Below, piece by piece: positions 23,649 through 23,971 of a DNA stretch of 25,286 bases (positions within the stretch are counted from its first letter, which is position 1; every line of letters starts with the position of its first letter). The stretch lies in IMG/VR virus record IMGVR_UViG_2529293142_000022. One strand, written 5' to 3'. The notes below the pieces were generated by a model. That model was not told the DNA's origin. It worked only from the letters and a program-made list of their open reading frames with translations, and ran no database searches. Both the position numbers and the translations under genes were made by a program. The DNA is from a virus. Lineage: Duplodnaviria > Heunggongvirae > Uroviricota > Caudoviricetes.

Positions 23649-23755
23649 TGTTCAACTGTCGCCGGTTGTGACTGGTATTCTGCAACCGGCGCTCGTCTGA
23701 TGTAAGAGATAAAGAAATCGATGAGCGAAGTAATCATGATTGTCTCTCCCGGCAA

Positions 23756-23971
23756 ATGGGTATCCGAAGAGCAGTTAATTGCGCTGAAAGGAATAAAAAA
23801 GGTACGTTAAAAAAGGCCCGGGAAAAATCGTTTATGGAAGGAAGGGAATATAAGCATGTCGCTCATGACGGTATGCCATGGGATAACAGTCCATGCTTTT
23901 ACAACCTGGAAGAAATTGATCGCTGGATTGAGCGCCAGGCATCAGCAAGACCAAGACGTCATCTTACTTGA
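23756..23971 (+). CDS. Putative excisionase (lambda Xis-like, GREY motif); may be the 3' part of a frameshifted 83-codon gene starting at 23721
   Basis: …KGTLKKAREKSFMEGREYKHV…; an upstream ATG at 23721 with better Shine-Dalgarno (MSEVIMIVSPGKWVSEEQLIALKGIKK) joins this frame if one A is added to the A6 run at 23795-23800. Confidence 0.45.
   Translation: MGIRRAVNCAERNKKGTLKKAREKSFMEGREYKHVAHDGMPWDNSPCFYNLEEIDRWIERQASARPRRHLT

Follow-up and report, generated by a model that had tools for sequence, protein, structure and literature searches.

A Putative XisR-Family Excisionase Gene Split at an A6 Run in a Qin-Type Cryptic Prophage, Probably Through a Homopolymer-Length Error

INTRODUCTION

XisR (YdaQ), encoded by the Rac prophage of E. 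coli K-12, has been shown experimentally to drive excision of rac and to bind attR (PMC4632033). The protein belongs to family PF06806, and xisR adjoins its integrase gene, intR, just as the xis gene analyzed here adjoins int. By the window we mean the whole stretch of viral DNA that was analyzed, the 25,286 nucleotides of IMG/VR record IMGVR_UViG_2529293142_000022. The two proteins are distant in sequence (XisR aligns to residues 12–71 of the fused window protein with 26% identity), xisR contains no A tract, and the attachment site of Rac is ttcA, in contrast to the rspB side for the window prophage. A protein of the DUF1233/XisR family, which is small, winged-helix-like, and DNA-binding, would bind the prophage attachment region and, once bound, would steer the adjacent integrase toward excision, acting as a recombination directionality factor.

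The Xis protein of phage lambda (PF07825) is likewise small and basic, its gene lies immediately before int, and it presumably does the same job. Its likeness in sequence to the window protein is limited to a four-residue string, GREY. In lambda Xis, GREY lies in the region that forms the wing of the structure.

Much closer to the window gene is WP_000005552.1, an "excisionase family protein" of Qin-type/mEp460-like prophages (those of E. coli KE58 and NADC1036 among them), which is the same 83-aa protein once the window gene is repaired. These loci have the same neighbors, with an exonuclease gene upstream, an integrase gene downstream, and rspB beyond; the window differs from them by a run of six A residues (A6) in place of seven (A7). 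The isolated phages mEp460, HannyBb, Tritos, and PhiR42_1 share the exonuclease–xis–int module, and all of them have a longer, intact xis. The same A6 allele occurs in genes that PGAP labels as the pseudogene "xisR, excisionase family protein, frameshifted" (E. coli IAI39, CE10, AR_0013, MSHS 472, and O157:H7 Z1814). A different kind of likeness is offered by the −1 frameshift sites of dnaX and of the IS3–IS911 type, which have a zero-frame A_AAA_AAG heptamer identical to the one found at the break in the window gene.

RESULTS AND DISCUSSION

The Window Is a Qin-Type Cryptic Prophage

The window represents a cryptic (defective) lambdoid prophage of the Qin type, located at ydfJ/rspB. Its genes follow the order ydfO, gnsB, the csp genes, the lysis genes, ydfT/ydfU, relBE, flxA, the immunity region, DicF, dicB, ydfD, exonuclease, xis, and int. 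The exonuclease gene (positions 21177–23648, forward strand) lies directly upstream of xis and encodes an 823-aa YdfE-type protein with an Rv2179c-like 3′–5′ exonuclease domain. The partner of xis is an intact gene for a tyrosine integrase of 426 aa (24006–25286, forward strand), which has Arm-DNA-bind_2 and Phage_integrase domains. This int is an annotated CDS of 1281 nt in relatives and is identical in nucleotide sequence to the int of KE58. In annotated relatives, rspB is found just past int, and the order exonuclease–xis–int–rspB is kept.

Two insertion sequences have altered the prophage. An IS66-family element (tnpA, tnpB, and tnpC; 6178–8681) interrupts ydfT, the Q antiterminator gene, within its first codons and is flanked by an 8-bp target duplication, TGGTAAGG (6170–6177 and 8682–8689). 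A copy of IS1414 (IS256 family; 10146–11460) replaces the roughly 476-bp rem–hokD interval of K-12 Qin. The prophage was already defective because of these two changes. The transposase ORF of IS1414 is itself broken; it encodes 258 aa, whereas the CDS of intact copies is 1209 nt long.

Several other features were recorded. Matches at the Rfam gathering level were obtained for the DicF sRNA (20481–20532, forward strand), for the sok antitoxin RNA (14861–15032, reverse strand), which sits between an ISNCY-type transposase remnant and a methyltransferase gene, and for two cspA-type thermoregulator leaders (1378–1763 and 4272–4664, both on the reverse strand), those of cspI and cspB. Position 1 of the window is the ydfO ATG and position 25286 ends the int stop codon, with attL and attR not included; such exact gene-boundary edges suggest that the record was trimmed like a predicted provirus rather than that it stops at a natural contig end. 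Substitutions relative to K-12, NADC1036, KE58, and OW968124 are dense in two patches, 20556–21290 and 21600–21880, that span dicB, ydfD, and the 5′ end of the exonuclease gene. Because the patches are common to two close relatives, the loci L144 and L145, they are recombinant (mosaic) and not errors.

Two Open Reading Frames Are Halves of One Gene

The original prediction was that the xis gene is split by a one-base change in an A6 run, and the two ORFs and the run on which it was built were all found. The first ORF, with 29 codons (23721–23810, forward strand), is opened by ATG 23721 and closed by TAA at 23808–23810, and its product is MSEVIMIVSPGKWVSEEQLIALKGIKKVR. Codons 1–27 are the genuine N terminus of xis, which contributes the first strand and the first helix of the fold, while codons 28 and 29 (VR) and the stop are out-of-frame read-through. 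The second is a mechanical ORF of 71 codons (23756–23971, forward strand) in the +2 (equivalent to −1) frame relative to the first. Its product begins with MGIRRAVNCAERN, and its first 13–15 codons (MGIRRAVNCAERNKK) are the 5′ part of xis read out of frame. The genuine 3′ part of xis (23801–23971, forward strand) runs in the −1 frame from GGT (Gly28) to the stop; it supplies helix 2, the EGREY-bearing wing, and the helix at the C terminus.

The reading frame of xis breaks at codon 27/28, in the AAAAAA run at 23795–23800 (forward strand, flanked by T and G), and no frame runs uninterrupted through the full domain. In relatives the tract is A7 (codons ATA AAA AAA GGT), and when the window is aligned with intact relatives the sole gap falls in the A run. 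Insertion of one A fuses the ORFs, as had been proposed, and gives an uninterrupted protein of 83 residues, MSEVIMIVSPGKWVSEEQLIALKGIKKGTLKKAREKSFMEGREYKHVAHDGMPWDNSPCFYNLEEIDRWIERQASARPRRHLT, in which the predicted GREY motif is present as EGREY. The 29-codon and 71-codon ORFs are two halves of one 83-codon gene. As written, the gene yields an N-terminal stub of 29 residues and nothing more; the 71-codon ORF, which has no start signals of its own, is a by-product.

A better ribosome-binding site had been claimed for the upstream start. This holds by comparison with ATG 23756, before which there is no RBS-like sequence (TCTCTCCCGGCAA), but the site at 23721 is itself merely a weak purine-rich stretch, AAGAGATAAAGAAATCG. 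Orthologs from other genera begin at the position of M1 and not at that of M6, which speaks for 23721 as the true start.

The Repaired Protein Belongs to the DUF1233/XisR Family

The repaired 83-aa protein matched PF06806 (DUF1233, "putative excisionase") over positions 1–69/70 with an E value of 1.6e-31 and a score of 108.1 bits, for which the curated cutoff is 22 bits. When the two products were searched separately, the 29-aa product matched positions 1–23 (E = 2e-5), and the 71-aa product matched positions 22–69 only, beginning at its residue 14. The repaired protein also matched PHROG 539, "excisionase," over 1–79/80 (E = 1.4e-35). The sole solved structure matched by sequence was PDB 2KVV, a "putative excisionase" from a Klebsiella homolog; the match covers residues 7–73 and spans the part encoded by the upstream ORF.

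Orthologs in Cronobacter, Klebsiella, Lelliottia, and Silvania are single-frame genes that start at the M1 position and conserve PGKWVSEEQLIALKGIKKGTLKKAR. Their conserved PGKWVSEEQLIALKG block falls in the frame of the 29-codon ORF. Across genera, G11, W13, E16, K23, and G24 vary little or not at all, and all five are encoded in the upstream frame of the window. Homologs that matched the N terminus of the 71-aa product and bore no similarity to the upstream frame had been named as the finding that would count against a split gene; the reverse was observed, with the upstream frame matched and the first 13 residues of the 71-aa product unmatched.

A structural model was examined for the intact homolog P0002, which stands in for the repaired protein at 99% identity. 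The AlphaFold2 model (mean pLDDT of 73) contains the elements E13–15, H16–23, H29–36, E44–46, E59–62, and H63–73, and the frameshift position lies between helix 1 and helix 2. The top Foldseek match of the P0002 model was 2KVV (probability of 1.00, TM of 0.61–0.64), followed by the phage P2 DNA-binding protein 4LHF (probability of 0.63) and then by non-significant winged-helix proteins. With moderate confidence only, the model points to a small helix–helix–wing DNA-binding fold like that of 2KVV.

Alignment with the Xis proteins of lambda and HK022 had been suggested, and this placement has to be given up. BLASTP against lambda Xis gave an E value of 9.5, the window protein had no match to PF07825 (Exc) at E ≤ 1, and lambda Xis was absent from the Foldseek fold matches; in the control, lambda Xis itself scored 1.2e-41 with PF07825. 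The repaired protein has a full-length match to the DUF1233 profile above the curated cutoff, and its gene adjoins, at the prophage end, that of a tyrosine integrase with an arm-binding domain. The gene belongs to the DUF1233/XisR family and encodes a putative excisionase, the function being suggested by homology to XisR.

The A6 Allele Is Rare and Recurrent

The region is present in 2,606 complete E. coli genomes. About 2,557 of these carry A7 (matching with one gap), nine carry A6 (exact match; 0.35%), and an A8 query found the A8 allele in none. In IMG/VR, A6 occurs in three contigs among the 120 A6-or-A7 matches listed, a frequency of at most about 2.5%. In a collection of 15 billion proteins, at least 1,000 contigs carried the 83-aa protein, 21–24 the 71-aa product, and 16 the 29-aa product.

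The nearest relatives of the window also have the longer tract. The exact 823-aa exonuclease protein was found on four contigs, and both of the places listed (L144 and L145) carry an A7 xis. L144 is the same as the window from 11472 to 25286 save for one substitution (at 13544) and the missing A, and L145, over 5 kb, likewise stands one substitution and this A apart. The xis–int segments of L144, L145, and KE58 are identical to that of the window except for the base in the A run. The exact A6 allele on the window background was absent from 5,426 complete E. coli genomes, and searches of the GTDB representatives and of IMG/VR likewise yielded no exact match. Because near-identical relatives carry A7, A6 is either derived and very recent on this background or not real.

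On other backgrounds A6 was found on at least six xis–int haplotypes. Each has an A7 neighbor 0–3 differences away that is usually nearer than any other A6 haplotype, and the change from A7 to A6 therefore recurs. The copies labeled by PGAP as frameshifted xisR are identical to the window over a 91-nt test segment, but they have differing xis–int haplotypes and lie in differing contexts (remnants in which the exonuclease gene is truncated or deleted, or another integration site); they are accordingly independent events and not members of the window lineage. IAI39, CE10, and AR_0013 all have A6. The copies in IAI39 and AR_0013 lie in the same IS629-truncated remnant, and their A6 was probably inherited rather than being a repeated error. 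MSHS 472 and O157:H7 Z1814 have A6 in contexts other than this remnant. E. coli H736 also has an A6 xis, in a prophage whose layout differs from that of the window, and its 71-aa product is annotated "excisionase" (EGI11179.1). A further A6 xis was seen in Shigella flexneri SFBU0723 (CP182557.1), which has 29 gap openings in 2.6 kb when compared with the window and is not its source; the assembly is rich in indels, and the A6 seen there probably reflects an error.

The Record Carries Other Homopolymer Contractions

The gene gnsB (563–736, reverse strand, 174 nt) contains three contractions, T6>T5 at 606, T8>T6 at 671, and T5>T4 at 711 (sites 607–611, 672–677, and 712–715), which disrupt it in the absence of any substitution. 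An intergenic contraction, T6>T5 at 3947 (3948–3952), lies downstream of ynfU. None of these four was shared by any of the 12–16 comparator loci (12 for gnsB and 16 for 3947). No IMG/VR contig had the 606 or the 711 allele, and the normal 606 allele was present in at least 118 contigs. Among complete E. coli genomes there was no gapless match to window positions 520–1200, the top matches differing from it by length only. Three frameshifts and no substitutions in a gene of 174 nt are hard to explain biologically and look like typical homopolymer under-calling.

The insertion sequences are affected as well. In tnpC of the IS66-family element, T5>T4 at 6397 cuts the product to 486 aa, the best-matching copy having a tnpC CDS of 1593 nt, and no record contains this shortened TnpC. 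The IS1414 transposase gene differs from its best copy by T5>T4 at 10336, T3>T2 at 11106, and an extra G at 11260. When A/T runs of five or more were counted, about four of 54 were contracted in the K-12-like left 6 kb and one of 85, that of xis, in the right 13.8 kb (Fisher p = 0.07), a comparison in which the left-half runs were set against loci outside the window's own lineage, ydfU being too common to mark that lineage. A mismatch-repair mutator lineage was considered as the source of the contractions and is disfavored, as substitutions are about as few as indels.

The A7 run of ynfN (1111–1117) is a separate case. It is the K-12 state, with a CDS of 156 nt; most relatives have A8 and a ynfN of 231 nt. 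This is a natural homopolymer polymorphism that alters the length of a small gene.

Sequencing Error or Mutation

The original prediction offered two explanations, a pseudogene or a homopolymer sequencing error, and both are still the live ones. In our judgment the window contains an xis gene whose missing A probably reflects a wrong homopolymer length in this record and not a mutation of the organism; an 83-codon xis would then appear split at codon 27/28, where the A7 tract reads as A6. We favor error over real mutation, as about twice, and up to two to three times, as likely. This is because the record carries other homopolymer contractions seen nowhere else, three of them inside gnsB, and because the local rate of contraction in long runs (roughly 10%) is greater than the frequency of A6 in the population (0.35%, or at most about 2.5% in IMG/VR). 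The odds are not decisive, since the right half is clean and the left half has no same-lineage comparator. Against an error stand the right-hand 13.8 kb, which are otherwise free of indels relative to the closest relative, the recurrence of the A7-to-A6 change elsewhere, and the fact that prophage decay is a setting in which real xis pseudogenes occur.

A genuine frameshift pseudogene is the principal alternative, and we regard it as possible but rather doubtful. Replication slippage would have removed one A in the lineage of the strain and inactivated xis, which would leave an intact int without its directionality factor and make excision of a defective prophage rarer still. The same change in nine complete genomes, including IAI39, CE10, and O157:H7 Z1814, where it bears the PGAP label "xisR, frameshifted," shows that such lesions are found, and the several A6 haplotypes with near A7 neighbors argue for recurrence. 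The right half of the window matches L144 but for one substitution and this A, and in a prophage as degraded as this one (IS66 in ydfT, IS1414 in place of rem–hokD) xis is probably not under selection. These points have to be set against the A7 tracts of L144, L145, and the otherwise identical KE58 haplotype, the absence of the exact allele on this background from the 5,426 complete genomes, and the further unique contractions in the record, three in one 174-nt gene. The suggestion that loss of xis has locked the prophage in adds little, the prophage having already been crippled by IS insertions; a real mutation would be only a further small step in grounding a Qin-type prophage that was defective beforehand.

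A Slippery Heptamer at the Frame Junction

The deletion creates an A_AAA_AAG heptamer (23795–23801, forward strand) in the zero frame of the 23721 ORF, read as AT[A AAA AAG] GTA. The heptamer stands at the frame junction in the dnaX-type X_XXY_YYZ register, and a −1 slip on it continues GGT ACG TTA, which gives exactly the wild-type 83-residue protein. No downstream stimulatory hairpin or pseudoknot was found, as the segments 23801–23860, 23801–23900, and 23770–23850 fold more weakly than shuffled sequence (z of +1.5, +1.8, and +2.3). The sole SD-like element, AAGGA (23788–23792), lies 2 nt upstream of the heptamer. From dnaX and prfB, the SD spacing that stimulates −1 shifts is 10–14 nt. In E. 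coli, few motifs shift as readily as A_AAA_AAG, and motifs without stimulators shift at merely 2–10 times a background of 0.055% (PMC4066793). In an over-expression vector, C_AAA_AAA gave 25–60% shifting and rescued single-base deletions (PMC1851650).

The A6 allele could on this basis be a hypomorph and not a null, with −1 ribosomal slippage, and some transcriptional slippage, restoring low-level authentic Xis as a crude dimmer of excision. We think this very unlikely. If it were true, self-rescue would explain the recurrence of the A7-to-A6 change on many haplotypes, with A8 never seen. More generally, whenever a lysine-codon A tract loses one base, the best −1 slippery site of E. coli arises automatically in register, and such "pseudogenes" can leak. 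A trace of authentic Xis from the A6 allele is plausible; nothing points to a selected mechanism.

The stronger proposal is of a recoded or leaky gene, in which a −1 slip on A_AAA_AAG (or addition of an A by RNA polymerase) would supply a reduced and possibly useful amount of wild-type Xis and which, in its strongest form, would be an on/off or dimmer switch. Despite the correct register, the exactly wild-type product, the shift-prone motif, and the rescue seen under over-expression, we consider this very improbable. Both stimulators of dnaX and IS3–IS911-type sites are missing (there is no downstream structure, and the SD-like AAGGA is too near), unstimulated motifs shift at the low rates given above, and the two-frame arrangement is not conserved among relatives, in which A7 is the norm (A6 in 9 of 2,606). 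The slippery motif in the window is an accident of the deletion. A homopolymer contingency (phase-variable) locus has a long tract, usually of 8 or more, that both lengthens and shortens within populations. Here A7, the norm, is short for such a tract, and A8 is found in 0 of the 2,606 genomes. Contraction alone was seen (A6 in nine genomes) and expansion never, which could be counted in favor of a leaky gene, but the nine genomes represent about 3–4 independent events and the 9:0 asymmetry is hence not significant. The recurrence of A6 on several haplotypes is better explained by a mutational hot spot than by a switch.

The idea that the 71-codon ORF is a real and complete excisionase gene and the 29-codon ORF unrelated to it, for which one might cite records such as EGI11179.1 of H736 that call the product an excisionase and the 71-aa length of K-12 XisR, is refuted by the alignments and has next to no chance of being correct: no match exists for its first 13 residues, the conserved N terminus of the family is instead encoded in the upstream frame, XisR itself aligns to a stretch of the fused protein that includes the upstream-encoded part, and nothing like an RBS precedes 23756. 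We also considered whether xisR of the K-12 Rac prophage is a frameshift remnant like the 71-codon ORF, and rejected this; xisR is an intact, distant member of the family without an A tract, and that the two lengths agree is coincidental.

A second in-frame A_AAA_AAG occurs in the genuine xis frame at 23808–23814 (codons TTA AAA AAG, L30-K31-K32), and the A7 tract of the wild type also reads as a slippery heptamer, A_AAA_AAA. The intact xis therefore has two adjacent slippery lysine sites, at which −1 slips would truncate the products.

Annotation of the Split Gene

The A6 lesion is ordinary and already known, the same frameshift having been flagged in NCBI annotations. The correct annotation is one xis gene at 23721–23971, marked as frameshifted or low-quality, in place of separate entries for a 71-aa "excisionase" and a hypothetical protein of 29 aa. 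The main practical value of the split xis is as a quality warning for the record, and past annotation it matters little. The cluster of unique contractions carries a similar warning, that other apparent pseudogenes here (gnsB and the IS transposases) may be artifacts. The 71-aa and 29-aa products stand as separate entries in public databases.
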